DNA from: Trichlorobacter lovleyi SZ | Lineage (GTDB): Bacteria > Desulfobacterota > Desulfuromonadia > Geobacterales > Pseudopelobacteraceae | Direction of reading: 5' to 3' | DNA length: 32,000 nt | NCBI RefSeq assembly: GCF_000020385.1 | Contig: NC_010814.1 | Coordinates: forward strand, 3,570,001 to 3,602,000 | In this document: positions 15,067 through 32,000 of the stretch, piece by piece | How positions within the stretch are numbered: the stretch's first letter is position 1 | How the letters are laid out: the number at the start of each line of letters is the position of its first letter | Made by a program: the position numbers and the translations under genes | The notes under the pieces: model-generated | Databases searched by the model: none | Told to the model about the DNA's origin: nothing | What the model saw: only the letters and a program-made list of their open reading frames with translations

Positions 15067-15081
15067 GTCCACCAGCTCAAC

Positions 15082-15130
15082 GATACAAAGAAAGGCGCCT
15101 ACCGTTTCCGGTGGCGCCTTTCTTTGTATC
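15082..15130. terminator. Very strong bidirectional terminator hairpin
   Basis: GATACAAAGAAAGGCGCC (15082-15099) is the exact reverse complement of GGCGCCTTTCTTTGTATC (15113-15130). The loop adds ACCG/CGGT pairing. A/T runs sit at both stem bases. It lies between convergent transcription units. Confidence 0.8.
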
Positions 15131-15154
15131 AGCCTGTTGTGCTATTGAGGTACA

Positions 15155-15325: not shown

Positions 15326-15328
15326 ACC

Positions 15329-16360
<1,032 letters not shown>

Positions 16361-16738
16361 TTATTCCGCCTTGGTTCGCAATCCTGCGGCGATATTGAAG
16401 TCTATATCCACCACAATAGTCAGCTTGTCCTTGTCAGGATCAGCCATCACTTCAAAGAGCCGTTTATCAATAAAAAGACTTAGATTGAGAATGTCTTGCT
16501 TTAAGGCTGTTGGCAGCGGGTTTTCCGGATCGGAAAGTTCGGCCTGAAAGAAACTCCAGACCTTCTGGTTGAATTTAATCGCCTCAAGCAGCTTTTCATC
16601 ACGGTCTGGCGCAGCCCAGTTTTCCTGCACCTGCTTTAACATCAGACCGGCACGGGTCAGTACCGACGCCTCAAGCTCGCGACCTGAAAGGGTCTCTTTC
16701 TGCATACTGGTGTAGCTGTTAAGTGCTGTCTGGCTCAT
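16361..16738 (-). CDS. flaF: Flagellin-synthesis regulator FlaF family protein
   Basis: 125 aa. Layout matches my recollection of Caulobacter FlaF. Elements: N-terminal Y..(Q/K).....RELEA..L, then LLEAIKFNQKVWSFF, NPLPTALKQDILNLSLFI, and C-terminal IDFNIAAGL. SD GAAGGAG lies upstream. Confidence 0.7.
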   Translation of the reverse strand: MSQTALNSYTSMQKETLSGRELEASVLTRAGLMLKQVQENWAAPDRDEKLLEAIKFNQKVWSFFQAELSDPENPLPTALKQDILNLSLFIDKRLFEVMADPDKDKLTIVVDIDFNIAAGLRTKAE

Positions 16739-16805
16739 CCGTTATGACTCCTTCTGCAATTTTGTTTCATAATAAACAATTCCAAGGGGAAATCAAGCCT
16801 GCCTT

Positions 16806-18020
16806 CTAAAACACTTCGCCTTTCCAGGCTTCATACTGATCAGCAGTCGGATCCATCGACTTACCGTTCGCATCTTTCCCCAAAAATTTAAAGACAAGGT
16901 GGCTGGGATCAAGAATGCCTCCTTCAGTTATAGGATCAAAAGTACCTCCGTTGGTATCTGCCTTTTGACGTAGCGTAAAGGTCAGGGTTGCCTGTCGGGT
17001 TGTCGGATCATAGGAGACACTTTTGGGAAGATAAGGCACCGAGGTATCCCGTGCGCTGTATAATCCATTGTTGTAGAGACCTGTGGTACCACCAGATGCC
17101 TTGCTGATCCGCCAGTTCAGCGGGTCCACCACTGAGCTGATATCCATTTCTGAATCAAAGGCAAATTTTACGGTAAAGTCTTTAGTTGCACTGGGCTCCA
17201 TAAACGCCGACGAAAGTGCCACCAGATTCACAGCCGACAAATCAAGCTTCAAAGAGCTCTTGGTACTGTTGTAGTAGGAAATCTTTGGCTGCTTGATCTC
17301 TGCAGCCAGCTCTTCAGCTGAGAGCAACGAATCTGACGTGGCAATTTCAGTCAGCGTATCAACAATTTCCTGGGCCTTGTCCTTTTCTCCAAGCCCTGCG
17401 TACGCCCTGCCGAGTTCAAGCAGAGCCGGCGAAAAATCTGCCTTGAGATCTGTGGCCTTTTGAAGTGCCTCAACTGCTTCGTCGTATTTTTCCTGTCCGT
17501 TCAGCGCCATTCCCAAGGCATAATAACCGTTGCCGTCCTTGGGCTCCAGCTTGATAACCTGCCGGAAATTGGCCTCGGCCGAAGTATAATCCCCATTTTG
17601 AGCCTGTAACTGACCCAGCATGTAATATGCCAAGGTGTTCTGATTATTCTGTTTAATGCCGTCCTTGAGAACCTTTTCAGCCTCGCTCTTCTGACCATTA
17701 TCAATATAGACACCAGCCAGAGTGGTGTAAACCGTATCCTGGGTCTTATCCACCTTCAGAGACATCTTGTAGGCATCAATCGCCTCTTTACGCTTACCCA
17801 GGCGGGCATAAGCATCGCCCTGATACGTATAAGCCTCGGTAAGATCGGGCTGCATGGCAGCGGCCTGCCTGAAAGCTGAGGCGGCCTCGCTGTACTTCTG
17901 GCTCTGCATCAGATTGATACCACTCGAAAGCAAGGTATTAGCGACATTTGTGCGAAGGTCTGCTGCAGAAGTCAGCGCAGAAAACATTTTCTGTACGTTA
18001 TCTGAAAAATCAAATGCCAT
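16806..18020 (-). CDS. TPR-repeat protein with C-terminal Ig-like/beta-sandwich domain, apparently co-transcribed with flaF
   Basis: About six TPR units span aa 30-235, for example YSEAASAFRQAAAMQPDLTEAYTYQGDAY and YDEAVEALQKATDLKADFSPALLELGRAY. The S/T/G-rich beta-type C-terminus contains DPLNWRISKASGGTTGLYN and SVSYDPTTRQATLTFTL. No signal peptide is present. Confidence 0.75.
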   Translation of the reverse strand: MAFDFSDNVQKMFSALTSAADLRTNVANTLLSSGINLMQSQKYSEAASAFRQAAAMQPDLTEAYTYQGDAYARLGKRKEAIDAYKMSLKVDKTQDTVYTTLAGVYIDNGQKSEAEKVLKDGIKQNNQNTLAYYMLGQLQAQNGDYTSAEANFRQVIKLEPKDGNGYYALGMALNGQEKYDEAVEALQKATDLKADFSPALLELGRAYAGLGEKDKAQEIVDTLTEIATSDSLLSAEELAAEIKQPKISYYNSTKSSLKLDLSAVNLVALSSAFMEPSATKDFTVKFAFDSEMDISSVVDPLNWRISKASGGTTGLYNNGLYSARDTSVPYLPKSVSYDPTTRQATLTFTLRQKADTNGGTFDPITEGGILDPSHLVFKFLGKDANGKSMDPTADQYEAWKGEVF

Positions 18021-18126
18021 GACTGCCGCCTCCTTCCTCGTATATTTTGCAACCCTACTTCTATTGCGTAATGGGAAACGTCTCGTGTATACTTCGTCTG
18101 TCCGAGCACAGCTACTCTACTTCTAC

Positions 18127-18154
18127 CTATCGGAGTATACCTCGATTTTCTTTA
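18127..18154 (-). promoter_or_regulatory. Sigma28 (FliA)-like promoter candidate for the TPR-flaF unit
   Basis: The minus strand reads TAAA (18151-18154), a 16-nt spacer, then TCCGATAG (18127-18134). The consensus is TAAA-N15-GCCGATAA, so the spacer is one nt longer and the -10 has two mismatches. It lies about 105 nt upstream of the ATG at 18020 and next to the plus-strand ATG at 18156. Confidence 0.3.
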
Positions 18155-18155
18155 C

Positions 18156-20774
18156 ATGAACAGTCCTGCACTTCACAATATTCTGGCCCAGGCCGAGCAG
18201 TTCCATACCGACGGTCGCCTTGAAGAGGCGGCCGACCTGTATCGACGTATTCTCACGATCAAGCCTGGGCTCTCCCGCACCGCCTACAACCTTGGTATAC
18301 TCCTGCTTGAGTTGCAGAATTATCACGGAGCCGGAGCTGCCTTTGAGCAGTGCCTTGCCATTGAACCACACCTGCTTGAGGCACGTCTGAACCATGCCTT
18401 TGCCCTGCAGGAACAGGGCAGAATCACTGACGCACTGACACGCTACCAAACAATAATCAGTACGACCCCCGACTGCATTGAAGCCCGCTTCAATCTGGCC
18501 TGCCTGCAACTCCTGCAAGGCAATCTGTCTGATGGTCTGAACGGTTATGAGCTGCGTTTTTCCACCAATGCTCCGGTTACGGCACGGCATGGCACCATGC
18601 CACTCTGGGACGGCAGCAGCAGACCTGGTCTGCGGCTTTTGATCCATGCCGAGCAGGGCTATGGCGACACCCTGCAGATGCTGCGTTATTTACCAATGCT
18701 GGCAAACGATGGCCTTGAAATCACGCTGGAAGTCCCTGCTCCGCTCTATCGACTCTGTTCACGGATTGACTCAATCCACTGTGTAGAGCGCGGCACCCCG
18801 TTACCGGAACTGGATTACCAACTGCCGATCATGAGCCTGCCGCGAGTTATGAAAGCGACTCTGTCCAGCATACCCGGCACAACCCCTTACCTGACGCCTG
18901 ATCCGGAACTGGTCAGTCAATGGCGGCACCGCCTGCCTGAAGCAGGCGGTCTGCGGGTCGGACTGGCCTGGGCCGGGCGGATGGACCTGCCGGTCAACCG
19001 CAAGCGCAGCTGTCCGCCGCCCCTGCTGCAACCACTTCTGGCAACCGATCGGGTCAGTTTCATCAGTCTGCAGGTTGCAGCACCGGAAGGTTTTCAGCTC
19101 AGCGATCCACGTCTGCTTGATTGCAGTGCCGATCTGACTGACTTCGACCAGACGGCAGCCCTGATTGCCACCCTTGATCTGGTCATCACCATTGACAGCG
19201 CTGTGGCGCATCTGGCCGGCGCCCTGGGTGTACCGACCTGGTTAATGCTGCCGACAGTGCCAGACTGGCGCTGGCTGCTTGAGCGCAATGACTCTCCCTG
19301 GTATCCGGAGATGCAGCTTTTCCGGCAACCGGCGCCGGGCGCCTGGGAAACGGTGATTTCAACGATAACTGAGCAGCTCTCCACTGCCTGCTCACCACGC
19401 ATCTGGTGCTATCACGACGGCCGGGATTTTCATAACAATCTGACAGCAACCCGCCCCACCCCGTTGAGCGACCGTTCTCAATGGCCCGCCCTGGGACTAC
19501 GTGAAGCCGATTCACCGGTTGCAGCTGACTGGCTGCTGTTCCCCTATTACCTTGAACATCTTGCCGAATACCACACCATTGAGGGGATGTGGCATTTCCT
19601 TGAACAGCTACCCTGGTTTAAAGAACGCCAGGAACATCATATCCTGTTCAGTGACCATGACTGTGAGGCACCCTATCACTCCAGCGCGCACTGGTTCAGG
19701 GCCAGTGTCCACCCCCGCCGCCATGATCCTGCTGTTTGCGTCATCCCCTATCAGGTTGCAGTACCGCCGGAGCAGCTCCACTTTGATCTGTCCCGCATCC
19801 GGCACCACGTCAGCTTTGCCGGCTTTCTGGGGCTGTTGCGGGAGCGTGCACCAATGCTGAACGGAGTAATTGCCGAACCGCGCCTGGTCCATATGTTTGA
19901 TCTGACCACCTCGTTCCATCTGCACCAGGCCACCGAAGTCCGGGAACAACGGCGTCAACGCTATCTTGAGATTTCCAGCGCATCCATCTGCATCCTCTGC
20001 CCACGGGGAGACGGCAGCTCTTCGATCCGTTTTTTTGAGGCCCTGGCGCTGGGCAGGATCGCGGTGGTACAGGAACCGGTTTTACTCCCCTTCAGTGACC
20101 GGATCGACTATACGCGTTTTGTGATCAGCATACCCCGGGACCGGCTGGATCAGGCCGGGACCATTATTTTCAACTGGCTTGCCGCCCTTGGTGACGAGGA
20201 ACTGCTCCAGCGCTGCCGGGAGGCACGCTTTGCCTGGGAACAACACCTTTCTCCCGCTGCACTGCCACGGGGAGTTGTCCGCCAGCTCAACCGGCAGATG
20301 CTTGCCCGCCCCTCCAAATGGCCGGAAGCGCTGCCCGGCCATGACCGTGATGGCTGGCAACAACAGATGAACCGGGCCGCCGTCCTGTTACTGAAAGGGA
20401 AACCGCTCGAAGCACGACAGCAGCTGGCTGCGGCCCTGCAGATCAACCCGCGTTCCGCCCTGCTGCAGGTCACCATGGGCGGTATTGAACAGGAGCTGGG
20501 TAACGACCGCTCTGCCGAGGCATATCTGCTGGACGCCATCCAGTATGACCATCGCTGTTATGATGCCTATCTGCTGTTGGCCGGCCTCCTGGCGCGAACC
20601 AACCGGCCGGTTGAGGCCGTGGGGCGTTTCTACCAGGCCAGTCTGATCCGCCCTGCCGAGCTGCTGCCCTACCAGCTGGCCCAGCCCCTGCTACTGCAGC
20701 TTGGTCGCCAGGATGAGGCCACCTACTGCCAGGAACAGATTACACTGCTGAGCGGTAGCGGGGCTGCAGCATGA
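18156..20774 (+). CDS. Multidomain protein: TPR - GT9-like (heptosyltransferase-fold) - exostosin/GT47-like - TPR
   Basis: Approximate domains:
- aa 1-125: TPR.
- aa 130-410: GT-B module with LLIHAEQGYGDTLQMLRY, IDSAVAHLAGALGVPTW, VPDWRW, PWYPEMQLFRQP.
- aa 455-705: exostosin-type block ICILCPRGDGSSSIRFFEALALGRIAVVQEPVLLPFSDRIDYTRFVISIP.
- aa 735-860: TPR.
The stop overlaps the next ATG (ATGA at 20771-20774). Confidence 0.75.
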   Translation: MNSPALHNILAQAEQFHTDGRLEEAADLYRRILTIKPGLSRTAYNLGILLLELQNYHGAGAAFEQCLAIEPHLLEARLNHAFALQEQGRITDALTRYQTIISTTPDCIEARFNLACLQLLQGNLSDGLNGYELRFSTNAPVTARHGTMPLWDGSSRPGLRLLIHAEQGYGDTLQMLRYLPMLANDGLEITLEVPAPLYRLCSRIDSIHCVERGTPLPELDYQLPIMSLPRVMKATLSSIPGTTPYLTPDPELVSQWRHRLPEAGGLRVGLAWAGRMDLPVNRKRSCPPPLLQPLLATDRVSFISLQVAAPEGFQLSDPRLLDCSADLTDFDQTAALIATLDLVITIDSAVAHLAGALGVPTWLMLPTVPDWRWLLERNDSPWYPEMQLFRQPAPGAWETVISTITEQLSTACSPRIWCYHDGRDFHNNLTATRPTPLSDRSQWPALGLREADSPVAADWLLFPYYLEHLAEYHTIEGMWHFLEQLPWFKERQEHHILFSDHDCEAPYHSSAHWFRASVHPRRHDPAVCVIPYQVAVPPEQLHFDLSRIRHHVSFAGFLGLLRERAPMLNGVIAEPRLVHMFDLTTSFHLHQATEVREQRRQRYLEISSASICILCPRGDGSSSIRFFEALALGRIAVVQEPVLLPFSDRIDYTRFVISIPRDRLDQAGTIIFNWLAALGDEELLQRCREARFAWEQHLSPAALPRGVVRQLNRQMLARPSKWPEALPGHDRDGWQQQMNRAAVLLLKGKPLEARQQLAAALQINPRSALLQVTMGGIEQELGNDRSAEAYLLDAIQYDHRCYDAYLLLAGLLARTNRPVEAVGRFYQASLIRPAELLPYQLAQPLLLQLGRQDEATYCQEQITLLSGSGAAA

Positions 20775-23700
20775 ACCGCCACCAGCGTCCTAAAGGTTCA
20801 GTCGCTGTCTGGTATCGTCTCGGCACCCGGCAACTCCGGCAGAATCGCCCGGATGACGCGGCTGCGAGCTTTCGTCAGGCGCTGGCACAGGATCCGATGC
20901 TGGCGGCAGCCTGGCACAACCTGGCCCACGCCTGTCAGCAGATGCGCCAGTATGATCACGCCCTGGTCAGCTACCGCCGGGCCTTGCAGTACTGTCCCAA
21001 TGATGCCTGCAGTCTCAACAACCTGGGCGTACTGCTCCGGGAGCTGGGACGCCTGGATGAATCACTGCAGGTTCTGGGACAGCTTGTCAGCCTCTACCCT
21101 GATGACGGCGACGGCCACTGGAACCTGGCGCTCTCCCTGTTGATGACCCGACGCTACCCTGAAGGCTGGCAGGAGTATGAATGGCGCTTCCGCCGGACTC
21201 TCCCGGTCCGGGTCCATGATCCCGGCAGCCCCCGCTGGCAGGGTGAAGCGTTGGAGGGGAAAACCATCCTGCTCTGCTGTGAACAGGCCTATGGCGACAG
21301 CATTCAATTTGTACGCTTTGCCGCCGGCCTTGCCGATTGGGGCGCCACGGTGCTGCTGCACTGTCCGGACCAGTCCCTGGCGCAGCTTCTTGCCGGTGCG
21401 CCGGGGGTCAGCCGGACCATGACCCCGGATGAACCGTTGCCGCCGCATGACTGCTGGTCTCCTCTGCTCAGCCTGCCGCTTTATCTGCAGACCAGTCAGG
21501 AAAGTATTCCGGCCTGCCCCTACCTGTTTGCCGGGAAAACCGCCAGCCAACCGGTACTATCCGGCACCGGCCTCAAGGTCGGTCTGGTCTGGTCCGGCCG
21601 CAGCACAGACCCGCAGCGGGCCTGCCCCGTGCAACTGCTGGCACCATTGGCGCGCTTTTCAAGGCAGGTCACGTTTTTTTCGCTCCAGCTGAACAGCACC
21701 CGCCATGACCTTGATCTGTTGCAGCACCTCTTGGGAATCATCGATCTGGCGCCGCACCTGAGCGATTTTCAGGCCACTGCAGGGATCATGCAGCAGCTTG
21801 ACCTGATCATCAGCATTGACAGTGCCCCGGCCCACCTGGCCGGTGCACTGGGACGGGAGACCTGGCTGCTGCTGCATCAGGCCCCTGACTGGCGCTGGGG
21901 CCTCCAGCACGCAGATTCAGACTGGTACCCCACCATGCGGCTCTTCCGCCAGCCGGCAGGTGAGTCGTGGCAACCGGTGATTGATCAAGTGGTCGAAGCC
22001 CTGGAGCAGCGGCTCAACAGCAGCGCCGCCAGCATTCCGGTTGCGGACACCGGCGACCTGCTGACACTGGGGGACCGCTTGCGTGAGCAGGAACAGTGGA
22101 GCGCAGCGCACCATCTCTACCGGCTGGCTGCCTGGCTGGCACCGAACAACTACCGTGCAGCGCTCTGTGCAGGCGGATGCCTGATGTTTCTCAATCGTCC
22201 TGACGAGGCAGCCACCTGGTTCCGGCAGGCCATTGCATTAAACCCGGAAGTGGCTGATGCCCATATCAATCTGGGCATGGCCTTGCTGAGCAGCGGCAAC
22301 CTGCAGGAAGGCTGGCGCGAGTTTGAATGGCGCAGCTGTGCCATCACCGCGCAGCTGCCCCCTATTCCCGCCCTGCCGGTCATACCGCCCAACAGCCGTC
22401 TTGACGGTACGACGGTCCTTATCCATGCCGAACAGGGATTGGGCGACCTGCTGCAGTTCGCCCGCTACCTGCCGCTGCTGGCAACAACCGGGGCGCAGAT
22501 TATCGTCAGTGTCCCGGCCGTGATGCAACGCCTGATAGCCGGTCTGACCGGCGTCAGCCGGGCCGTCTCCCATGGCGAACTGCTGCCTGAGGCTGACTAT
22601 CAGCTCCCGCTGCTTTCCCTGCCGGAATGTCTGTCAGAGCTGGTGCCCGCCATCCCTGTCCAGGTACCGTACCTGTTGCCTGATCCAGCCCTGCAAGCGG
22701 CATGGCAGTCACAGCTTGCCGACAACGGCGTACTCAAGGTCGGCCTGATCTGGCGCGGCAGCAATCTGGGGAAAAGCGGTTACAGCAGGGCTCTGACCAC
22801 AGAACTGCTGCGTCCCCTGACAGAGGTGGAACAGACCACCTGCTACAGCCTGCAACTTGGCGCCAGCAGCGAAGAGCTGTCCCAACTGCCCGGCATCATT
22901 GATCTGGCACCGCAGATTACTGATTTTGCCGATACGGCGGCCATCATGGTCAATCTTGATCTGGTGATCAGTGTCGATACCTCCACCGCCCACCTGGCCG
23001 GTGCCCTGGGCTGCCGCTGCTGGGTACCGCTCCTGTTTGCGCCTGACTGGCGCTGGTATCCGTTGCATGACCAAGGCAGCCGCTGGTATCCCTCCCTGAC
23101 CACTTTCCGCCAGCATATACCCGGCCGGTGGCAGCCGGTTATGGCTGAACTTGCCGCTGCCCTGCAGGGTGAGGCGTTATTGTACCAAGGGCACCAACTT
23201 GGCAGGACGGGCAGAAGGGAAGAAGCAATTGAAAAATTCCGGGCAGCGGCTGTACTCCCAGACAGAAACGGGCCCGCCTTTTTGAATCTCGGCATCTACC
23301 TGCGGGCCGATGGTAAGCTACTACAGGCAAAAGAGGCCTTACTGCAGGCGACCCAGGCAGATCCGGGCTACCCGGAGGCCTGGCAAAACCTGGGACTGAC
23401 CCATCAGGGACTGGGAGAACTGCCTGAGGCCTATACCTGCCTGAAACGGGCACTGACCCTCAGACCTGACTACAGCACTGCCCGCTGGAACCTGGGGCTA
23501 CTGCAACTATTGTTGGGGGAATACCGGCCTGGATTTGAAAATTTCGAAGCGCGTTTCACCAAACTTGGAGCCGTGGCCCGGCTGCACAACACCATCCCGG
23601 CCTGGGACGGCACTTCATATCCCGGCAAAACAATCCTGATTCATGCGGAACAGGGCTACGGTGACACTCTTCAGTTCGTACGCTTCATTCCGATGGTCAC

Positions 23701-24409
23701 TGAAAGGGTGGGGAAAGTGATCCTTGAGGTGCAGGATAACGCCTTGCGTGAACTCTGCCAAAGCGTACCAGGGGTTACAACAACCATTGTACGAGGTGAG
23801 ACGCTACCGGCAATTGACTGCCAGGCCCCGCTGCTATCGCTCCCCCGGCTGCTGAAAATCTCATTAGAGACGCTGCCGCACAAGATTCCGTACCTGACTG
23901 CCGATAAACAAAAAACAGGGTACTGGGAGAGCAGACTCCCCCATGATGGCCGACGCAGGATCGGCATCTGCTGGAAAGGACGGCCAACACCCGACCCGCA
24001 GCGCTCAATCCCGTTTGATGAGTTGCGACCTCTTTTTGAGCTGGCAGGAACCTGCTGGATCTCGCTGCAGGCGGAGCAGGACCAGACCGCTCGCCTCCCG
24101 GAGGTGATGATTGACCTTAGCAATGAGATTAACGATTTCTCCGATACCGCAGCGATTATGGGCTATCTGGACCTGGTGATCAGCATTGACTCGGCGGTAG
24201 CTCATCTGGCCGGTGCCCTGGGGGCACCCGGCATCGTGCTGCTCCCCTTTGCACCTGACTGGCGCTGGGCCCTGGATCAACCCCACAGCCCCTGGTATCC
24301 GGGATTGCAACTGTTCCGGCAACCGGCCCCGGGAGCATGGAAACCGGTAATTACGGCCCTGTGCAACGCCCTGACACAACCATCTCCTGCCGAGGCATCA
24401 CGTGGATAA
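20771..24409 (+). CDS. Protein with three tandem TPR + GT9-like glycosyltransferase modules (1212 aa)
   Basis: Motifs recur three times:
- EQAYGDSIQFVRF, EQGLGDLLQFARY and EQGYGDTLQFVRF at aa 171, 554, 960.
- IDSAPAHLAGALG, VDTSTAHLAGALG and IDSAVAHLAGALG at aa 349, 735, 1139.
- APDWRW at aa 371, 757, 1161.
- WYP....FRQ at aa 385, 772, 1175.
Each module is preceded by 3-4 TPR-like repeats. Confidence 0.8.
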   Translation: MNRHQRPKGSVAVWYRLGTRQLRQNRPDDAAASFRQALAQDPMLAAAWHNLAHACQQMRQYDHALVSYRRALQYCPNDACSLNNLGVLLRELGRLDESLQVLGQLVSLYPDDGDGHWNLALSLLMTRRYPEGWQEYEWRFRRTLPVRVHDPGSPRWQGEALEGKTILLCCEQAYGDSIQFVRFAAGLADWGATVLLHCPDQSLAQLLAGAPGVSRTMTPDEPLPPHDCWSPLLSLPLYLQTSQESIPACPYLFAGKTASQPVLSGTGLKVGLVWSGRSTDPQRACPVQLLAPLARFSRQVTFFSLQLNSTRHDLDLLQHLLGIIDLAPHLSDFQATAGIMQQLDLIISIDSAPAHLAGALGRETWLLLHQAPDWRWGLQHADSDWYPTMRLFRQPAGESWQPVIDQVVEALEQRLNSSAASIPVADTGDLLTLGDRLREQEQWSAAHHLYRLAAWLAPNNYRAALCAGGCLMFLNRPDEAATWFRQAIALNPEVADAHINLGMALLSSGNLQEGWREFEWRSCAITAQLPPIPALPVIPPNSRLDGTTVLIHAEQGLGDLLQFARYLPLLATTGAQIIVSVPAVMQRLIAGLTGVSRAVSHGELLPEADYQLPLLSLPECLSELVPAIPVQVPYLLPDPALQAAWQSQLADNGVLKVGLIWRGSNLGKSGYSRALTTELLRPLTEVEQTTCYSLQLGASSEELSQLPGIIDLAPQITDFADTAAIMVNLDLVISVDTSTAHLAGALGCRCWVPLLFAPDWRWYPLHDQGSRWYPSLTTFRQHIPGRWQPVMAELAAALQGEALLYQGHQLGRTGRREEAIEKFRAAAVLPDRNGPAFLNLGIYLRADGKLLQAKEALLQATQADPGYPEAWQNLGLTHQGLGELPEAYTCLKRALTLRPDYSTARWNLGLLQLLLGEYRPGFENFEARFTKLGAVARLHNTIPAWDGTSYPGKTILIHAEQGYGDTLQFVRFIPMVTERVGKVILEVQDNALRELCQSVPGVTTTIVRGETLPAIDCQAPLLSLPRLLKISLETLPHKIPYLTADKQKTGYWESRLPHDGRRRIGICWKGRPTPDPQRSIPFDELRPLFELAGTCWISLQAEQDQTARLPEVMIDLSNEINDFSDTAAIMGYLDLVISIDSAVAHLAGALGAPGIVLLPFAPDWRWALDQPHSPWYPGLQLFRQPAPGAWKPVITALCNALTQPSPAEASRG

Positions 24410-25259
24410 GCATCCTGACTGGGAAACGTACTGGAGTACGACGGAATTCAGTCCGCTCACCGGTACAAATTTTTTTACTCAGATATTCAATGTCTTTGTC
24501 CCGGAAGTACAGGGGCAGTTGACAGCAATGGAAATCGGCTGTTTTCCCGGACGTTTCATTGAGTACATCGGTCAAAAAGGTTATGTCATCAGCGGCATTG
24601 ATACCTGTCCAAAGGTGCTTGGCCTCAACCAGCTCTTTCGCGAGAGGGGATTGCGGGTAGGTGCTTTTTCCAACGTCGATCTCGATGATTTTTTCGGCCG
24701 CTTCGGCCTGGTTCTTTCGGTTGGTTTTATTGAGCATTTTGCCAATTGGCCCAGGATCATCATGAAGCATATCGAATGTACCAAACCCGGTGGAAGAATC
24801 ATTATCAATTGCCCGAACTTTGCGACCCCACTGCAGAGAGCGATGCATCAGACGGTAGACAAGGGGAATAGTGATCACCATGTCCTTTCCGCAATGTATC
24901 CGGCATTGTGGGGGGCATTTCTGAGACTGGTCGGGATGGACCTGCTGTATTGTGATTATATCGGTCCGTTTCAATTCTGGACCGAAACATGCCTGCATCC
25001 CGACAGCAATGAGTACAAACTGCAGCAAGCATTTCAGTCTGCCGGCAACTGGTTGCATAAAATCAAGGGAGAATTTGAGGCAAAGGAGTCAGGCTATTGC
25101 CTGGCAGTTGCAGACAGGCCCCGGGATTGGGTAGCCGACAATGACAGGATTGAAGCGCTCTGTTCTGAATTTCAGACTCTTGCAACGCTGCTTGACCTGA
25201 AAGACCAGCTGCTTGCCGATCAGCTGCGACACGCGTTTAAAACGGCAATACCGATCTAG
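24402..25259 (+). CDS. Class I SAM-dependent methyltransferase
   Basis: Motif I-like AMEIGCFPGRFIEYIGQKGYVISGID, later GGRIIINCPNF. GTG start at 24402 has GAGG 6 nt upstream and overlaps the previous gene by 8 nt. The 235-aa antisense ORF was rejected. Confidence 0.7.
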   Translation: MDKHPDWETYWSTTEFSPLTGTNFFTQIFNVFVPEVQGQLTAMEIGCFPGRFIEYIGQKGYVISGIDTCPKVLGLNQLFRERGLRVGAFSNVDLDDFFGRFGLVLSVGFIEHFANWPRIIMKHIECTKPGGRIIINCPNFATPLQRAMHQTVDKGNSDHHVLSAMYPALWGAFLRLVGMDLLYCDYIGPFQFWTETCLHPDSNEYKLQQAFQSAGNWLHKIKGEFEAKESGYCLAVADRPRDWVADNDRIEALCSEFQTLATLLDLKDQLLADQLRHAFKTAIPI

Positions 25260-25324
25260 GCCAAGCCCCACAGATACAGGACAGAGTACCACTCTCATTT
25301 TTCTTCACTCATGACAGGGGCCAT

Positions 25325-26617
25325 ATGAAGGTAGTTCACATAGCCTTATCAAATGACGGTGGAGCCGGTATTGCCGCCTACCGGTTGCATACAGCCTTGA
25401 GAAAAGCAGGGGTGGCGTCGCTCATGCTGGTGCTGTACAGCAAAAATGATGATCCTACGGTCAACATCATCAACACCACGACCCGGCCCTGCCTGACGAC
25501 CGGCCCCGGCATTTCCCCCCATTTCTATACCCATGAACAGCACACCCGTTGCCTGCTGGAACAGCACCCCCAGCGCAACCAGAAACGGGATATGTTTACC
25601 GGTGCGACCTCCGAAGTTGTACTGGAAGATATTGCAGCAATTCACGACGCCGACATCATCAACCTGCACTGGGTCGCAGGGGTGGTGGACTATTCCCGCC
25701 TCAGCCATATCTTCAAGGGCAAACAAACGGTACTGACGCTCCATGCCATGAACGACTTTACCGGTGGCTGCCACAACGCCTATGACTGCCGCAACTATAC
25801 GACCGAGTGTTGTCATTGCCCACAATTAGGTCCACACCCGTTTGACCATGCCAGACATATTTTTTATCAAAAACTCTATGGGATGCAGGAGCTTGAGATA
25901 ACAGCGGTCAGCCCCAGCAGATGGCTGGCCGGCTGCGCCGCCCAGAGCAGAATCCTGTCCGGCAGACGCGTACTGTGCATCCCCAACGGCATTCCGAGCG
26001 AGACCTTCAGACCACTGGAAAGTTCTGCTGCCCGTGACTATTTCGGCATTGCCCCTGATCGTTTCATCATCCTGTTTGGCGCCTTTGATGCTACCAATGA
26101 ACGCAAGGGAGGGGCATTACTTGCTGCTGCACTCGGGCAACTGCCTGTCACTGTCCTGGATAGAATCACCCTGGTTGGATTCGGCGCCTCATCAGAGACA
26201 CTGGTAACGTCTTTCCCCTGCGACGTCAAAGGCTTGGGACCAGTCTGCAATGAAGACAACCTGGCGCTGATCTATTCCATGGCAGACCTGTTTGCCCTGC
26301 CATCCATGGCGGATAATCTACCCAACTCCATTCTGGAATCACTGGCCTGCGGCACGCCGGTACTGGCATTCAGGGTTGGCGGCATACCGGAGATTGTCGA
26401 ACACAGGCGAAACGGGTATCTTGCCACACCGTTCAATACCGGTGAGCTGGCTGCAGGGATCGTCTGGTGCATGGAAAACCACAAACAACTCGCAGGCGAA
26501 CCGTGTACCGCCACCATCCGATATGGCTATACTGACCGTATCCAGGCCCTGCGCTATATCAGTCTCTACCAGAGCCTGCTTGACGGTTTGTCAACCAGGC
26601 AGAGCAGAATCCGATGA
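25325..26617 (+). CDS. Glycosyltransferase family 4 (GT-B, group 1)
   Basis: N-terminus MKVVHIALSNDGGAGIAAYRL. C-domain ERKGGALL and LFALPSMADNLPNSILESLACGTPVLAFRVGGIPEIVEHRRNGYLA. Confidence 0.85.
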   Translation: MKVVHIALSNDGGAGIAAYRLHTALRKAGVASLMLVLYSKNDDPTVNIINTTTRPCLTTGPGISPHFYTHEQHTRCLLEQHPQRNQKRDMFTGATSEVVLEDIAAIHDADIINLHWVAGVVDYSRLSHIFKGKQTVLTLHAMNDFTGGCHNAYDCRNYTTECCHCPQLGPHPFDHARHIFYQKLYGMQELEITAVSPSRWLAGCAAQSRILSGRRVLCIPNGIPSETFRPLESSAARDYFGIAPDRFIILFGAFDATNERKGGALLAAALGQLPVTVLDRITLVGFGASSETLVTSFPCDVKGLGPVCNEDNLALIYSMADLFALPSMADNLPNSILESLACGTPVLAFRVGGIPEIVEHRRNGYLATPFNTGELAAGIVWCMENHKQLAGEPCTATIRYGYTDRIQALRYISLYQSLLDGLSTRQSRIR

Positions 26618-27249
26618 CCAAACCGGCCTTTGCACAGACAAAGCTGTTGCAGTTCCTGGAAAAGATTGCAGTAGAGGTCTATCCTGAAGCACCGTCAGCA
26701 CTCCATACCCAGATTACCGCCAAGGCGATAGAGCATCTGTTTGCAGCCTACACAGTCGCCGGGCAGGCCCTGGTGCTTGATGTCGGTTGCGGGCAGGGGG
26801 TGGCTTTACAGCATTTTGTCGAACGGGGCTGTCGACCGGTGGGGATCACCCTCAATACAACCGATCTGGAGGAGTGCCGCAGGCAAGGATACACCGTGGC
26901 GCAGATGGACCAGTCCTTTCTTGATTTTGAAGACAACACCTTTGATCTTGTCTGGGCCCGGCATATTGTGGAGCACAGCATTTTTCCGTACTACACGCTG
27001 ACGGAGTTTGCCCGGATACTCAAGCCGGGCGGCCTGCTCTACCTTGAAGTACCCGGGGCGGAGACCTCCTGCAAACATGAACTGAACCGCAATCACTACA
27101 GTATCCTCAGCCACACCATGTGGTGCTCGCTGCTGGAGCGAAGCGGGTTCACTATCGCCGAAGAGCAAACCTATTTCCTGAAAAATGAGCAGGGACCTGA
27201 TGAATACTGGGCCTTTTTCGGGGTAACATCTGGAGGCACTCATGCCTGA
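26614..27249 (+). CDS. Class I SAM-dependent methyltransferase (Methyltransf_11-like)
   Basis: VLDVGCGQGVALQHFVERGCRPVGITL (motif I), FDLVWARHIVEHS and LKPGGLLYLEVP. ATGA overlap with the upstream gene. Confidence 0.8.
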   Translation: MTKPAFAQTKLLQFLEKIAVEVYPEAPSALHTQITAKAIEHLFAAYTVAGQALVLDVGCGQGVALQHFVERGCRPVGITLNTTDLEECRRQGYTVAQMDQSFLDFEDNTFDLVWARHIVEHSIFPYYTLTEFARILKPGGLLYLEVPGAETSCKHELNRNHYSILSHTMWCSLLERSGFTIAEEQTYFLKNEQGPDEYWAFFGVTSGGTHA

Positions 27250-28027
27250 AACGCATATCAGCACGACAGTAGCACCGTCTCTGTCAACAGACTCCTTTGT
27301 CTCCATCGGCTCACAACAGCCGATCTCAGCCATAGAAGAGGCGATGCTGGCAGCAGTCGCCGCCTCTCACGGACTGGTCACGGTCTCCGAGGCCCTGTCG
27401 TTACACCGTCTCTGTCAGATGCTCCCTGCCGGGGCGCGCATCCTTGAAATCGGTTCCTATCTTGGCGCCTCCACCACCGCCATAGGCCATGCTATCCTGG
27501 GAAGAGAGATCGATCTGTACTGCCTTGATTGTTGGCACGACTATGTCGCCCATGGTTTCATAGACCATCCCTGGGCCAAGTCGGCACATTCCGGCAACGA
27601 GGTCCTGCTCAAATTTCTCGAAACCACGGCGTTTATACACAGTCAGCTCCGGATACTGAAAGGTACCACCGAGCAGTTCCGGACCCTGCTACCGGCCTCG
27701 TTTTTTGATCTGATCTTTATTGATGCCGGCCATGATTATGATAGCGTCCTGAATGACCTGCTGATCAGCATGCGAGCGCTGGCCCCCGGCGGATTGCTGC
27801 TGGGGCATGACTACCACAGTGATGGCCATGGCGTTGTTGCCGCGGTCAACCAGGTGATCTATGAATCCCGCAACATCACGGTTAAAGGGATTATCCCGGG
27901 CACCAGCATCTGGTACGCCGTGATCAACAACCCGCTCCAGGAGTTGGTCAACTTGAACGCATCAGGTCTGCCACGACCTACTGATCGCACCTCCGTACCG
28001 GGTTCCCCGGCAAGCCGCTCGCTATGA
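27242..28027 (+). CDS. Class I SAM-dependent methyltransferase (Methyltransf_24 / family-3 O-MT-like)
   Basis: ILEIGSYLGASTTAIGHAI, DLIFIDAGHDYDSVLNDL and LAPGGLLLGHDY. Overlaps the upstream gene by 8 nt. Confidence 0.75.
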   Translation: MPETHISTTVAPSLSTDSFVSIGSQQPISAIEEAMLAAVAASHGLVTVSEALSLHRLCQMLPAGARILEIGSYLGASTTAIGHAILGREIDLYCLDCWHDYVAHGFIDHPWAKSAHSGNEVLLKFLETTAFIHSQLRILKGTTEQFRTLLPASFFDLIFIDAGHDYDSVLNDLLISMRALAPGGLLLGHDYHSDGHGVVAAVNQVIYESRNITVKGIIPGTSIWYAVINNPLQELVNLNASGLPRPTDRTSVPGSPASRSL

Positions 28028-29643
28028 AGATACTCTTAGTCATCCCCCTGTCAAACTATCCTCAAATGCACCCTGCGTTTTTGTCCAACACCGACTTCCC
28101 GGTCGGTTTTGCCTACATCGCTGCTGCTCTGAAACAGGCAGGGCATAAGGTCTTTGGCCTGAATCCCAACAATGACACCCGCTACGAATCTGCCCAAGAG
28201 CTCCTCAAGGCACGGCTGATCCAGTCTTTGATCGAAACCAACCCCCATATGATCGGCCTGGGCGGGCTTTCCACAGACATCCATTTTATTGCTGACGCCA
28301 TTCAGATCATCCGGTCGGTACGGCCGCACATCCCGATTGTGTGCGGCGGCGGGATCATCACTAATGATGCAGAGTACGTGTTCAAGCGGCTGCGTCCCGA
28401 CTTCTGTATTATTGGTGATGCTGAGCGTGCACTCGTACAACTTGTTGAGATGCTTGAGCAGGGCAGTGCCCTTTTCGATACGATTCCGAACCTCGGCTAC
28501 TGGCACGAGGGGCACGCCCGATTCAGCCCCCGTCTACGCAACGACGAGCCCGTCGATTCCTATCCCTTCCCCGATTACGAGCCCTTTGACATCAACAGCA
28601 TGCTCGGCGAGCACGCGCTGGTCACCCGCTATCAATACCGCTACACCCGCTCTCATCCGGTTCCAATGACCCTGGTGGCGGCTCGCGGTTGTCCGTTCAG
28701 ATGTTCGTTTTGCGTCAACAATGATGACAAGCGCTACCGTTTCCGGAGTATCGGAAACATTATGGACGAAATCAGGGTGCTGTATGAAAAATATCACTTT
28801 AATATCCTGATCATCCTGGATGAGCTGTTTGCAGTACACAGGGATCGGCTGCAGCAGTTTGCAACCGCCCTGCTTGAGGGGAGAGCACGCTATGGCTGGG
28901 ATTTTGACTGGAGCTTCCAGACCCACGCCAGTGCCAATATTGATCAGGCAACGCTCCAGCTTGCCAAGCAGGCCGGCTGTTTCTTTTTCAGCTATGGCAT
29001 TGAAAGCGCCAGCCCGACAGTCCTTGCCAGCATGAACAAGCGGACTCAGCCGGAACAGATTGAAGCAGCCCTGAAGCTCGCGGAGCAGGTACAGGTAGGG
29101 TTCGGAGGAAACTTTATCTTTGGTGACCCTGCCGAAACCTTCCAGACCGCCTTGGAATCGCTGGAATTTTACAAGAAGCACTGTCTTTATGCGCATGTCA
29201 ATGTCGGGTCGGTGCATCCCTATCCCGGCAGCAGGCTTTTTGACTACTGTCTCGAGCAGGGAATCATAGCAGACAAGTCTAAGTACTATGACAACATAGA
29301 CCAGGTTTCATATAACATGACCCGCTTGCCCCAGCAGGAGTGGGTACGGCTGATGACCGAGATTATGCAGTTCACCAGCCAATGCGGCGTTCCGGTGGTT
29401 GAAACACAAGCCGCACGCCAAGACCCCGGTGCAACGGAGCGTGAACGCCACGGCAACGGCAACAGATCACCGTGGGAACTTATATTCAACTGCCCGCACT
29501 GTAGCCACGGCATCTATACCCGCATGTTGCTGGTCAATGAAGAGGTACTGCAGGCCTATGCCAGCTTTGTAACCGGTTGCCCTGTATGTCACAAACGCTT
29601 TATCGTCAAGGCAGCGGCTAGTGAGCGGCCTGACCTGTACTAA
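28024..29643 (+). CDS. B12-binding-domain radical SAM enzyme (class B, probable methyltransferase) with C-terminal Cys4 zinc-ribbon-like tail
   Basis: N-terminal Rossmann/B12-like region MKILLVIP...IGLGGLST...IPIVCGGGIIT. Radical SAM cluster motif ARGCPFRCSFCVN (CxxxCxxC). C-terminus CPHCSHG...(36 aa)...CPVCHKRF. ATGA overlap with the upstream gene. Confidence 0.85.
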   Translation: MKILLVIPLSNYPQMHPAFLSNTDFPVGFAYIAAALKQAGHKVFGLNPNNDTRYESAQELLKARLIQSLIETNPHMIGLGGLSTDIHFIADAIQIIRSVRPHIPIVCGGGIITNDAEYVFKRLRPDFCIIGDAERALVQLVEMLEQGSALFDTIPNLGYWHEGHARFSPRLRNDEPVDSYPFPDYEPFDINSMLGEHALVTRYQYRYTRSHPVPMTLVAARGCPFRCSFCVNNDDKRYRFRSIGNIMDEIRVLYEKYHFNILIILDELFAVHRDRLQQFATALLEGRARYGWDFDWSFQTHASANIDQATLQLAKQAGCFFFSYGIESASPTVLASMNKRTQPEQIEAALKLAEQVQVGFGGNFIFGDPAETFQTALESLEFYKKHCLYAHVNVGSVHPYPGSRLFDYCLEQGIIADKSKYYDNIDQVSYNMTRLPQQEWVRLMTEIMQFTSQCGVPVVETQAARQDPGATERERHGNGNRSPWELIFNCPHCSHGIYTRMLLVNEEVLQAYASFVTGCPVCHKRFIVKAAASERPDLY

Positions 29644-29709
29644 CCAAGTACAGGCAGAACGCAATATGCTGACGACGCAGACACAACGTTTTTGAAAGGC
29701 AGATTACCG

Positions 29710-31086
29710 ATGGTAAGCCAGGAAAAGATAATTTCGTATGTAGAGAGCCTTATCTATTACATTGCCAAACCCGCCATGAGCGAACAGATTGCAGCATCTT
29801 TCGAGATCGACAGCCTGCCGCAAGCCGATACAGGAGCACAACTGCTAATCCTGGGGGCACTGCTGACAACAGGCCGGTTTGACGAGTTTTCCCAGCTGGC
29901 CGGCAAGCTTGATTTCAGCGCACACACCGCAGAAGAAAGGTCACAGCTTGCCCACTGCATCTTTACGACCTTCTCCGAAACCCTGCTGGCCAACTACGCC
30001 ACCTCATCCCGACATGCGGCGGCAATTCTGGAGCTCCTGACCGCAATCAGCCCGGAGGCCATACTGGCACACAGATCCGGCTGCGAATCACCAGCAGGGC
30101 ATGCACTGATCGAACTTGACTACGCCCGACAGATCAGCCCCTCCGTAAGCGGTGCCGTTTTTTCCAGGGAAAACTCCTTTGGACCAGGCTCACGAAAGAG
30201 CGAGTTTGGATATCGCATCCTGTCATCACTGGCCTCCCAGGGGTGGAACGTTGCGCTCTTGCCCTTAAAAGAGCTTTTCAGTTATACCACTCCCTGTCGG
30301 CAGGATTTTGTGCTGGTGGATGTGGGGCTGTTCTGGAAGCTGCCGCCGCTTGAGCAGCTCCATGAGCTGCTTGCGTACCTGAAACGTCATTTTCGCAAGA
30401 TCATCATCTTTGAACCGGACCCGTGGACCGGGTTCTATGATGAACTGTTGCGGTCAATTGCTGATCGTGTAGATTATATCTGGGGGTTCACCCCGGATTG
30501 GGAATTGACACAAGATCCGTGCTACAGGGGTAAAAGCATCATGTTCCCCAATGTCGGCGGATTCGAACAGCTGGCGCCGCCGCACCGGCATGAGCTTGAC
30601 TGGAACAGTTGCAGCTTCAACTTTACCGGCTCGGTACAGGGCTACAACCTGAACAGGGTCTACTGGATCCTTGAGGCGATCCGACGTAACCTGCCACTCG
30701 AGGTCCAGATTACGAATCCAGGTGTTGATGACGGCCTGGACTGTGAAAGTTCACTGAAGCTGTACATCCGGAAGCTGCTCTCCTCCCATGCCTCACTTAA
30801 CCTGGCAACGCGCAAGGATGGCTCACGGATGCTGACCGGCAGGGCGGTTGAGGTCATCAGCCTGAACCGGTTGCTGATTCAGGAATGGTGCCCCGCACTG
30901 CGACGGTATTATGTTGAAGGAGAGCACTTTCTGGAGTTCAAAGAGATTGAGGGACTTGCCACCAGCATCCACTTCCTGGAATCACACCCCAGGGTTGCAC
31001 AGACAATCTGCTCCCAGGGACATCAGTTCTATCTGGAACGGTATTCGTGCCGGAAAATGGTAGAACATATCCAGACCCTGCTCTGA
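29710..31086 (+). CDS. Divergent CgeB-like / Glyco_trans_1_2-type glycosyltransferase
   Basis: The C-terminal third resembles the CgeB family: FNFTGSVQGYNLNRV and LTGRAVEVISLNRLLIQEW...YVEGEHFLEFKEIEGL...QGHQFYLERYS. The N-terminal 200 aa are not recognised. Start set at the ATG at 29710; the listed start at 29692 is TTG. Confidence 0.5.
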   Translation: MVSQEKIISYVESLIYYIAKPAMSEQIAASFEIDSLPQADTGAQLLILGALLTTGRFDEFSQLAGKLDFSAHTAEERSQLAHCIFTTFSETLLANYATSSRHAAAILELLTAISPEAILAHRSGCESPAGHALIELDYARQISPSVSGAVFSRENSFGPGSRKSEFGYRILSSLASQGWNVALLPLKELFSYTTPCRQDFVLVDVGLFWKLPPLEQLHELLAYLKRHFRKIIIFEPDPWTGFYDELLRSIADRVDYIWGFTPDWELTQDPCYRGKSIMFPNVGGFEQLAPPHRHELDWNSCSFNFTGSVQGYNLNRVYWILEAIRRNLPLEVQITNPGVDDGLDCESSLKLYIRKLLSSHASLNLATRKDGSRMLTGRAVEVISLNRLLIQEWCPALRRYYVEGEHFLEFKEIEGLATSIHFLESHPRVAQTICSQGHQFYLERYSCRKMVEHIQTLL

Positions 31087-31097
31087 TATGGGGCAAA

Positions 31098-32000
31098 ATG
31101 CAATACCGTTACCTAGTCGCTCATGAGGTTCAAGTGCAGAAAGAAAACAACCAATTACATATCTGGCTGGCCTACGTAAACTACCCGATCACTACGGCCG
31201 TGTACCTGAAAAGGGCCTTGCAGCAGATGGGACATCAGGTCACCACCATTGGCCCACGCCTGCCGGAAAAGGCGATTGCCCTGTGGGGGCTTCAGAACAT
31301 GAAACTCCCGTTGGATCCTCAGGACATTGACACCTCCTTTACCCCTGATATGGCTGAAATATGGGAGTCGACACCGCCTGTAGAGCGCCCGGACCTGTAT
31401 CTCTGGGTGGAGTCGGTCAACGGACATAATCCGCAGAATCTGCAGCAGATTACCTGTCCCAAGGTCTGCTATCTGATCGATACCCATTACCATCTGGACC
31501 ATGCCATAGAGATTGCGCAGCACTTTGATTACGCCTTTATTGCCCAGTTGGTGGACCTGGAGGAATTCAGGACGCTACACCCGCAGGTTCACTGGCTGCC
31601 ACTGGCCTGCGACCCTGAAATCCATGGCAGGCAGACGGTCGCAAAGGAGTATGAGGTAAGCTTTGTCGGCGGCATGAATGAGCGCAGGGCAGCCCTGCTG
31701 GATCACCTGGCAAGCCGCTTCAATGTTCATCACGAGCGTTCCTTCTGGACCGATATGGCCCGCACCTTTTCCGCCACCCGGATCGTGCTGAATGATGCCA
31801 GTTATGACGACCTGAACATGCGCTTCTTTGAGGCGCTTGCCGCAGGCTCGCTGCTGCTCTCAAACCCGACCAGCGGCAGCGGACAGGACATCCTGTTTCA
31901 CGATGGCGCCGATTATGCCTGCCATCATGATCATGACCTGCTTGAGATAGTACAACGTTATCTGGACAACGAGCCACTGCGTGAACGGATTGCCGAGCAG
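31098..32000 (+). CDS. CgeB-family glycosyltransferase (DUF3880 + Glyco_trans_1_2-like), 3'-truncated by window edge; absent from the ORF track
   Basis: The frame is open from the ATG at 31098 (MQYRYLVAHEVQVQKENNQLHIWLAYVNYPITTAVYLKRAL...) to nt 32000. Typical CgeB blocks: YLWVES, CYLIDTHYHLDHAIEIAQHFDYAFIAQ, VSFVGGMNERRAALLDHL, ATRIVLNDASYDDLNMRFFEALAAGSLLLS. The two minus-strand ORFs listed here are shadows. Confidence 0.7.
   Translation, partial: MQYRYLVAHEVQVQKENNQLHIWLAYVNYPITTAVYLKRALQQMGHQVTTIGPRLPEKAIALWGLQNMKLPLDPQDIDTSFTPDMAEIWESTPPVERPDLYLWVESVNGHNPQNLQQITCPKVCYLIDTHYHLDHAIEIAQHFDYAFIAQLVDLEEFRTLHPQVHWLPLACDPEIHGRQTVAKEYEVSFVGGMNERRAALLDHLASRFNVHHERSFWTDMARTFSATRIVLNDASYDDLNMRFFEALAAGSLLLSNPTSGSGQDILFHDGADYACHHDHDLLEIVQRYLDNEPLRERIAEQ

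Follow-up and report, generated by a model that had tools for sequence, protein, structure and literature searches.

A putative flagellin glycosylation and methylation island with tandem FlmG-like modules beside flaF in Trichlorobacter lovleyi SZ

The subject of this analysis is a 32,000-nucleotide (nt) stretch of the genome of the metal reducer Trichlorobacter (formerly Geobacter) lovleyi SZ (contig NC_010814.1, positions 3,570,001 to 3,602,000; hereafter the window), which from position 16361 onwards carries a cluster of glycosyltransferase (GT) and methyltransferase genes next to the flagellar regulator gene flaF. A sequence-only reading of this DNA had proposed that the cluster serves the glycosylation and methylation of a cytoplasmic protein, most likely flagellin. 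The cluster is referred to here as the island, and is compared with FlmG, the flagellin O-glycosyltransferase of Caulobacter. Coordinates are positions within the window unless another locus is named, the plus-strand genes are labelled g1 to g9 in their order along the DNA, and related loci from other assemblies carry L numbers.

One border of the island is flaF (16361..16738, minus strand), which encodes a 125-amino acid (aa) flagellin synthesis/secretion regulator identical to T. lovleyi ACD97057 (116.8 bits to Pfam FlaF; 141 bits to the NCBIfam FlaF equivalog, whose cutoff is 91). On the same strand, 3′ of flaF, a consensus scan placed a terminator-like hairpin with a 12-bp stem and a T-run (16306..16333), the top-scoring such site in 16200-32000, which is probably the 3′ end of a transcript covering flaF and its neighbour TPR404. 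The latter gene (16806..18020, minus strand) encodes 404 aa, made up of an array of tetratricopeptide repeats (TPRs) at the N-terminus (approximately residues 1-240) and a beta-rich C-terminal part of 170 aa. The two minus-strand genes had previously been read as flaF and a TPR/Ig gene; flaF, the TPRs and the positions stand, and the “Ig” label is neither confirmed nor refuted.

Across a divergent gap of 135 bp (18021-18155) between TPR404 and g1, the open reading frame (ORF) listing and the junction sequences give nine co-directional plus-strand genes that run from 18156 to the window end. By Pfam, g1 (18156..20774, 872 aa) has an FlmG-like module at residues ~1-412, an Exostosin/GT47-like domain at ~450-670 and C-terminal TPRs at ~735-850. 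The 1212-aa product of g2 (20771..24409, identical to ACD97060) consists of three tandem FlmG-like TPR-GT-B modules, with GT domains at residues ~127-414, ~509-801 and ~916-1203. Then come g3 (24402..25259), a class I S-adenosylmethionine (SAM) methyltransferase (Pfam Methyltransf_23/11) of 285 aa if begun at GTG 24402, over which other gene callers choose 24528; g4 (25325..26617), a 430-aa GT4-type (GT-B, “group 1”) glycosyltransferase (Glyco_trans_1_4 76.8 bits, Glycos_transf_1 63.8 bits); g5 (26614..27249), a 211-aa SAM methyltransferase (Pfam Methyltransf_11/23/25); g6 (27242..28027), a 261-aa O-methyltransferase-like protein (Methyltransf_24, 70.2 bits); and g7 (28024..29643), a 539-aa B12-binding radical SAM enzyme of class B, identical to ACD97065. 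The last two genes are CgeB-like. The ORF of g8 (29710..31086) opens at TTG 29692 and is called as 458 aa, from ATG 29710, in L001 and L003-L005; its product matches Glyco_trans_1_2 at 39.7 bits, and no Pfam family match was found in its N-terminal 330 aa. The window holds the 5′ part of g9 (31098..32000), that is 301 of 1049 aa according to the gene calls in L001-L004, with DUF3880 and CgeB-like Glyco_trans_1_2 domains.

ATGA overlaps are present at 20771, 26614 and 28024 and 8-nt overlaps at 24402 (the GTG start) and 27242, and there are gaps of 65 nt (25260-25324), 11 nt (31087-31097) and, provided that g8 starts at ATG 29710 and not at TTG 29692, 66 nt (29644-29709). The gene number, the divergent gap, the overlaps and the three short gaps are therefore as the sequence-only reading had them, and Pfam agrees with the content it had listed by eye (four “TPR-GT9-like” modules, one exostosin-like domain, one GT4, two CgeB-like transferases, three methyltransferases and one B12-radical SAM enzyme). 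Its two statements of absence also hold: the window products have no transmembrane (TM)-like segment, the highest Kyte-Doolittle mean over 19 residues being 1.71, and domain scans of the window's major ORFs found no Wzx/Wzy, ATP-binding cassette (ABC) exporter, priming transferase or nucleoside diphosphate (NDP)-sugar gene. In base composition the g2 region (20001-23000) stands apart, with 62-63% G+C against 49-59% elsewhere in the window, neighbouring island genes included, which could come from the Ala/Leu/Arg-rich composition of its TPRs or from separate acquisition.

The four ~400-aa modules of g1 and g2 are mutually 35-41% identical (self-BLAST), and Pfam TPR matches precede each GT domain. 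A profile built from the four GT domains (A1) finds three full-length domains in g2, and all family-invariant residues are retained in each module. Residues 1-415 of g1 were modelled with AlphaFold (AF2) on a 51-sequence alignment, giving a predicted local distance difference test (pLDDT) score of 94.7 and a fold of eight TPR-type helices followed by two Rossmann-like lobes. The top Foldseek matches of this model are SPINDLY and OGT (E 1e-11 to 1e-8), at TM-scores of just 0.3-0.37; the GT-domain profile has no match at E<=1 in a sequence search of the PDB, and the window modules have no match to PF13844 (GT41). The PF01075 (GT9) matches are partial, covering 34-66 residues at profile positions 172-205 or 139-204 of 247, and of the NCBIfam heptosyltransferase models, whose cutoffs are all at least 170, the best reaches 45.9 bits where 185.3 would be needed. 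With the match only partial and the equivalogs below their cutoffs, an assignment of the modules as lipopolysaccharide (LPS) heptosyltransferases (GT9, WaaC/WaaF/WaaQ) was rejected.

The FlmG protein of Caulobacter has 596 aa, with an N-terminal TPR domain that binds flagellin and a C-terminal GT-B domain that sets donor specificity (PMC7591256). Its donors are CMP-pseudaminic or CMP-legionaminic acid. Our FlmG reference was an orthologue from metagenomic loci that carry the start of fljK, located via published flmG primer sequences. This 596-aa orthologue (L101 3124-4914; L144 2362-4152) carries five of the flmG primer sites at exactly the expected spacing, each matching with 1-4 mismatches. 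It matches the A1 profile at E 2e-34 and the g1 module with 30% identity over 434 columns (BLASTP, E 4e-34), and hhalign aligns its residues 278-592 with A1 1-290, i.e. the entire GT domain, at a probability of 99.6%. Because Pfam detects only TPRs in FlmG, this kinship is hidden in annotation. On sequence grounds the window modules are FlmG-family homologues of a distinct subfamily, and the four modules formerly read as TPR-GT9-like are recognised here as relatives of a flagellin O-glycosyltransferase whose activity is proven by experiment.

The gene cluster can be followed past the window end in a second assembly. Contig JBLBSK010013256.1 carries both L003, which is 99.86% identical to window 18770-32000, and L092, which is 100% identical to window 26301-32000. 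In L092 the complete g9 (plus strand, 1049 aa) is seen to carry an additional C-terminal Methyltransf_24 domain (Pfam), and it is followed on the plus strand by g10 (673 aa, CgeB-like and GT2-like), a 1288-aa fusion of CgeB-like, methyltransferase and B12-radical-SAM parts (the second B12-radical-SAM domain), a 303-aa unknown, an NAD-dependent epimerase/dehydratase, a GT8-like gene and a GT4 gene. A pair of OGT-like TPR-GT41 genes (PF13844) on the minus strand then precedes two plus-strand flagellin genes, at a window-equivalent position of ~48.3-50.1 kb. Each flagellin has 275 aa with Flagellin_N and Flagellin_C domains, and both are rich in Ser and Thr (24-26% overall, 30-33% in the central region). 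In L093, a relative at 82% identity, the gene order of L092 recurs and flagellin again stands at the end. Because the L092 cluster runs on to two flagellin genes, the island is predicted to be ~32 kb long and bracketed by flaF and the two flagellins, with window 16361-32000 as its proximal half. Linked flagellin genes, for which the sequence-only reading had suggested looking, hence lie ~16 kb past the window end in L092.

That reading had also named export machinery downstream as the mark of an ordinary polysaccharide locus. What lies there instead are glycosyltransferases, methyltransferases, a B12-radical-SAM domain and the NAD epimerase/dehydratase. The genes called over the range that starts 10 kb upstream of the window and reaches the flagellins include no flippase, polymerase, ABC exporter, chain-length regulator, priming transferase, outer membrane polysaccharide export (OPX) protein or polysaccharide copolymerase (PCP), and no island protein, the L092 continuation included, has a TM-like segment. 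An exopolysaccharide, capsule or LPS locus that neighbours flagellar genes by chance, and makes a lipid-carrier glycan whose exporter is encoded elsewhere, would explain the many GT4, GT2, GT8 and CgeB-like transferases with their methyltransferases, the partial Pfam GT9 match, the one NAD epimerase/dehydratase and the further GT4 gene 17 kb upstream. We regard such a locus as highly improbable given the lack of Wzx, Wzy, Wzz, ABC transporter, priming transferase, OPX and PCP over that range and of TM-like segments in the products, a GT9 match limited to 34-66 of 247 positions with heptosyltransferase equivalogs that score no higher than 46 bits where the cutoffs begin at 170, and the identity of the modules as FlmG homologues with TPR acceptor-binding arrays.

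The A1 profile search led to 80 sampled genome loci, which were scanned for flagellin, FlaF and FlbT. In all seven sampled Geobacterales loci flaF (75-82% identical) lies within a few kb of FlmG-like genes. Four of the seven (L009-L012) share the window arrangement, with trxB-flaF-TPR404 on one side of the divergent gap and g1 on the other. In the other three, from Geobacter sp. H7geo (L014, the same as L008), Geobacteraceae X3 (L013) and Oryzomonas japonica (L016), the FlmG-like arrays abut a flagellin-(unknown)-flbT-flaF unit. The Oryzomonas japonica genes are co-directional, with g5-like, g10-like and g9 C-terminal-like genes and FlmG-like genes followed by flagellin-flbT-flaF-trxB. The co-occurrence of this gene set with flagellar genes, another point raised by the earlier reading, is thus seen in homologous Oryzomonas and Geobacter islands that contain or adjoin flagellin, flbT and flaF. 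FlaF and FlbT are otherwise known mainly as regulators of alphaproteobacteria.

The arrangement of the flagellar genes differs among these lineages. T. lovleyi (window 16361-18020) and four related metagenome-assembled genomes (MAGs) have flaF without flbT, and their flagellins are 30 kb off at the far end of the island, while other Geobacterales retain a compact flagellin-(206-aa unknown)-flbT-flaF unit (L008 11422-13718, L013 17997-20365, L016 12265-14071). This suggests that an inversion or insertion split the unit.

We consider it likely that the island works in the cytoplasm, independently of an oligosaccharyltransferase, to O-glycosylate the two short flagellins, which are rich in Ser and Thr, and that the glycan is complex and heavily methylated. 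The basis of this reading is the gene content, the homology to FlmG, the lack of membrane and export components and the conserved linkage to flaF and flagellin. Further points in its favour are the resemblance of the g1 model to TPR-GT-B protein O-glycosyltransferases, the sigma-28-like motif before TPR404-flaF described below, the Ser/Thr content of the flagellins and the variation of the island between strains. The linkage, the FlmG homology and the absence of export genes likewise support the proposal of the sequence-only reading, of protein-directed and probably flagellin-directed cytoplasmic glycosylation and methylation in place of polysaccharide assembly. We infer flagellin as the acceptor, the order of the steps and the tailoring chemistry as follows. 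Flagellin would be caught soon after its synthesis, while still in the cytoplasm, by the TPRs of the four FlmG-like modules of g1 and g2, together with the two TPR-GT41 enzymes that adjoin the flagellin genes. Each GT-B domain would then move a sugar from a soluble nucleotide-sugar donor to Ser/Thr in the exposed central region of flagellin. The glycan would be extended by the soluble GT4, GT47-like, GT2-like and GT8-like transferases and the five CgeB-like transferases that the island totals, and O- and C-methylated by its SAM methyltransferase domains, at least six in number, and its one or two B12-radical-SAM enzymes. The modified flagellin would finally be passed to FlaF and exported via the flagellar type III apparatus.

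Several observations weigh against this flagellin assignment. The flagellins are seen in the sister contig, from which L002, the contig of the window itself, departs immediately behind g11 over a length of at least 0.9 kb. No nonulosonic acid (NulO) pathway gene (NeuB/PseI, PseB/C or CMP-NulO synthetase-type domains) was found in the window, the 10 kb upstream and the 18 kb downstream (~60 kb), although FlmG uses NulO donors. The motifs AHLAGALG, PDWRW and FRQ are invariant in 51 close relatives of the window modules and altered in FlmG; these motif differences, with the lack of a visible NulO pathway, mean that the donor of the window modules cannot be assigned from FlmG. The island has more than 12 glycosyltransferase domains, far above the needs of any characterised flagellin glycan. 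A literature search gave nothing relevant on flagellin glycosylation in Geobacter or Trichlorobacter, on CgeB with flagellin or on FlaF/FlbT in Geobacter.

The breadth of the family is a further point of the same kind. The FlmG-like domain family has 45,579 cluster representatives (50% identity) at E<=1e-3, and over 150 of the best matches listed are multi-module proteins; flagellin, flaF or flbT lies within 10 kb in only 12 of the 80 sampled loci; beyond Geobacterales, flagellar markers are within reach in only five of 73. Acidobacteriota, Planctomycetota, Verrucomicrobiota and cyanobacteria have members of the family as well. In the filamentous non-flagellated cyanobacteria Hormoscilla, Microcoleus and Tychonema (L050 7262-17872; L062 7289-17146; L083 7229-17122) there are giant proteins with 5-6 FlmG-like TPR-GT-B modules in tandem and a length of 3,286-3,537 aa. 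The acceptor of these giants cannot be flagellin, and membership of the FlmG family alone therefore does not specify flagellin.

The same facts bear on whether the island glycosylates other cytoplasmic or secreted proteins, such as other flagellar type III substrates, pilins or cytochrome filaments, instead of or besides flagellin, so that its proximity to flaF and flagellin would reflect shared regulation or a partial overlap of targets. Pointing that way are the size of the family with 68 of 80 loci not beside flagellar genes, the 5-6-module giants of non-flagellated cyanobacteria, a glycosyltransferase number above that of known flagellin glycans, and the presence of at least six TPR-GT units whose different TPR arrays could recognise different acceptors. 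We nevertheless judge other targets to be unlikely, since FlmG-like genes lie within a few kb of flaF in seven of seven Geobacterales loci and abut flagellin in three, the T. lovleyi island is bracketed by flaF and two flagellins, and FlmG, the sole characterised member of the family, is flagellin-specific via its TPRs.

The TPR404 gene and its promoter region give further context to the flagellin assignment. Full-length homologues of TPR404, 36-56% identical, occur in six loci (L007, L009-L013), always inside the island, so it appears to be a conserved island component, and it is predicted to be co-transcribed with flaF. A sigma-28 (FliA)-like motif, TAAAG-N16-CCGATA, is found at 18128..18154 on the minus strand and reads toward TPR404-flaF, with a spacing one base longer than the sigma-28 consensus TAAA-N15-GCCGATAA. 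It is the single match to the search pattern TAAA-N14-18-CCGATA over the 32-kb window, where 0.07 matches are expected and at least one occurs in 6 of 100 shuffles. The motif recurs upstream of the TPR404 homologues of L007 (Oryzomonas rubra) and L013 (Geobacteraceae X3), in L093 it lies upstream of the flagellin gene, and both L092 flagellins are preceded, as judged by eye, by related ACTCAA-N16/17-CCGA(A/T) sequences. Sigma-28 sites have been reported upstream of Geobacter fliC (PMC2577667). Before the plus-strand g1 operon no sigma-28-like motif was found and no convincing promoter, only weak sigma-70-like matches, and matches to a sigma-54-like pattern (TGGC-N8-10-TGC) show no enrichment, at 39 where 34.6 are expected. 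The sigma-28-like motifs suggest that the island may be under FliA control.

The beta-rich C-terminal domain of TPR404 (window 16806-17330) was found only in fusion with the island's TPR404, in L007 and L009-L013. Its 170 aa have no Pfam match at E<=1, and a single-sequence AF2/AlphaFold model is confident in the TPR part and beta-rich at the C-terminus, where a pLDDT below 50 makes it unusable. Could this domain be a flagellin adaptor or chaperone?

Among the tailoring enzymes, g7 matches both PF02310 (B12-binding, 60.5 bits against a cutoff of 32.1) and PF04055 (Radical_SAM, 57.9 bits against 29.5). Its best NCBIfam matches are B12-radical-SAM methylases, all far below their cutoffs, and it is probably a class B radical SAM C-methyltransferase. 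Orthologues of g5 that are 54-58% identical are present in the islands of L007, L010, L012 and L016. B12-radical-SAM C-methylases together with several methyltransferases are typical of natural-product tailoring, and the fusions of glycosyltransferase, methyltransferase and radical SAM domains suggest channelling, as would suit an island whose product is a methylated, soluble glycoside or oligosaccharide (natural product or compatible solute) and whose TPR domains only scaffold an enzyme complex. The odds are strongly against such a product, as the island has no aglycone or scaffold biosynthesis, exporter or typical cluster regulator, and the adjacency of flagellin, flbT and flaF and the homology to FlmG would be left unexplained.

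The tailoring genes vary between strains. In L001 (6379-7275) and L006, g3 is called as a truncated 216-aa gene, a G-to-A change having created a nonsense mutation. In one strain (L095, 634-1665) an unrelated methyltransferase of 343 aa takes the place of g6. After g11 one of two cassettes is present, a separate 273-aa methyltransferase in L002 (from 20707) or a fused B12-radical-SAM domain in L003 (from 19961). Exchange of cassettes and loss of genes between strains, as seen here, are typical of loci for surface glycans.

Neither flagellin glycosylation islands nor FlmG-type enzymes are new as kinds. Like the FlmG system of Caulobacter crescentus and Brevundimonas subvibrioides (PMC7591256; bioRxiv 10.1101/2022.03.25.485807), the T. 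lovleyi system combines N-terminal TPRs with a C-terminal GT-B domain, with sequences that are homologous from the last TPRs through the entire GT domain, in soluble and cytoplasmic proteins (here as predicted from sequence) whose genes lie beside flagellin and flaF, and the flagellins are short (~275 aa) and associated with FlaF/FlbT. It differs in that the module is present fourfold, three copies being fused in the 1212-aa polypeptide and one to a GT47-like domain, in that the host is a member of Desulfuromonadota and not an alphaproteobacterium, and in that no pseudaminic or legionaminic acid pathway is visible and the AHLAGALG, PDWRW and FRQ motifs have changed. Compared with the Caulobacter flm genes, the island adds at least nine glycosyltransferase domains, at least six methyltransferase domains and one or two B12-radical-SAM enzymes that have no counterpart there.

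With the Maf (MAF_flag10) and Pse/Leg islands of Campylobacter, Helicobacter, Aeromonas, Shewanella and Magnetospirillum, the T. lovleyi island would share the O-glycosylation of flagellin in the cytoplasm before export, and it shares a strain-variable position at the flagellin locus. Neither a MAF_flag10/DUF115 GT-A domain nor a product of pse, leg or neu genes is present among the scanned proteins, and the transferases here are GT-B. The statement of the sequence-only reading that the enzyme set is unlike these islands agrees with our scans, none of which found MAF_flag10 or a NulO-pathway gene. OGT and SPINDLY (GT41) provide the best structural matches of the g1 module and share the TPR superhelix that feeds a GT-B domain, and two true PF13844 TPR proteins are present in the island just outside the window; in contrast, the window modules have no PF13844 match, TM-scores of 0.3-0.37 and a catalytic domain of ~290 aa, much smaller than that of GT41. 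Multi-gene islands beside fliC, with glycosyltransferases and methyltransferases that make a tailored O-glycan, are also found in Pseudomonas aeruginosa a-type strains, P. syringae and Clostridioides difficile. These use different enzyme families and include donor-sugar biosynthesis genes, and we know of no tandem FlmG-like modules, CgeB-like transferases or B12-radical-SAM enzymes in them. To our knowledge, FlmG-type flagellin glycosyltransferases have so far been described in two alphaproteobacteria only. What distinguishes the T. lovleyi variant is the presence of tandem FlmG-like modules in one polypeptide, the non-alphaproteobacterial lineage, the lack of a visible nonulosonic acid pathway and the unusually large tailoring set.

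The FlmG family reaches Geobacterales as fused multi-module enzymes, and the system is apparently not tied to nonulosonic acids. A bolder and rather doubtful extension is that the tandem modules form a programmable, TPR-addressed glycosylation assembly line, in which one polypeptide would place several sugars at defined flagellin sites, the CgeB-like-methyltransferase-B12-radical-SAM fusions would build and methylate an unusually large glycan, and the FlmG-like family at large would be a general means of bacterial cytoplasmic O-glycosylation. Each module of such a line may have its own array for acceptor recognition and its own donor specificity, the glycan may be C- and O-methylated, a chemistry not yet seen on any flagellin, and there may be targets beyond flagellin in non-flagellated lineages such as the filamentous cyanobacteria. 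The prediction of flagellin glycosylation, if it proves true, would supply a first function for part of a very large family labelled just “tetratricopeptide repeat protein”, and glyco-engineering of proteins in the cytoplasm would gain new modular parts. Flagellar surface chemistry may also affect the motility of Geobacter toward minerals and electrodes and its attachment to them. T. lovleyi SZ and Oryzomonas species are motile bacteria available in culture, and the prediction is therefore directly testable.

The remainder of the window fits a Geobacterales genome, with a CheW-MCP-CheR set, an NrfD/Fe-S/cytochrome c7 cluster and a TrxB-like gene, and its CoaBC is identical to ACD97047. The NrfD/4Fe-4S/cytochrome c7 cluster and the TrxB-like oxidoreductase that follows it (12650-16321) are syntenic with L008 1-8664. 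This NrfD-to-TrxB cluster, which flanks the flagellin island in a Geobacter MAG, appears to mark a conserved chromosomal insertion point of the island. In the 10 kb upstream of the window, checked in L089, there are no flagellar or sugar genes. The lone GT4 gene at 94-903 (343 aa in full, L089 7900-8931), 17 kb upstream of the island, adjoins a metallo-beta-lactamase (MBL)-fold gene of the anti-Pycsar Apyc1-like type and has no evident link to the island. The CheW-MCP-CheR trio, of which the methyl-accepting chemotaxis protein (MCP) carries a HAMP domain, is on the minus strand at 2996-6238, 10 kb upstream of flaF, and its CheR ORF differs in length between assemblies (321, 486 or 510 aa).

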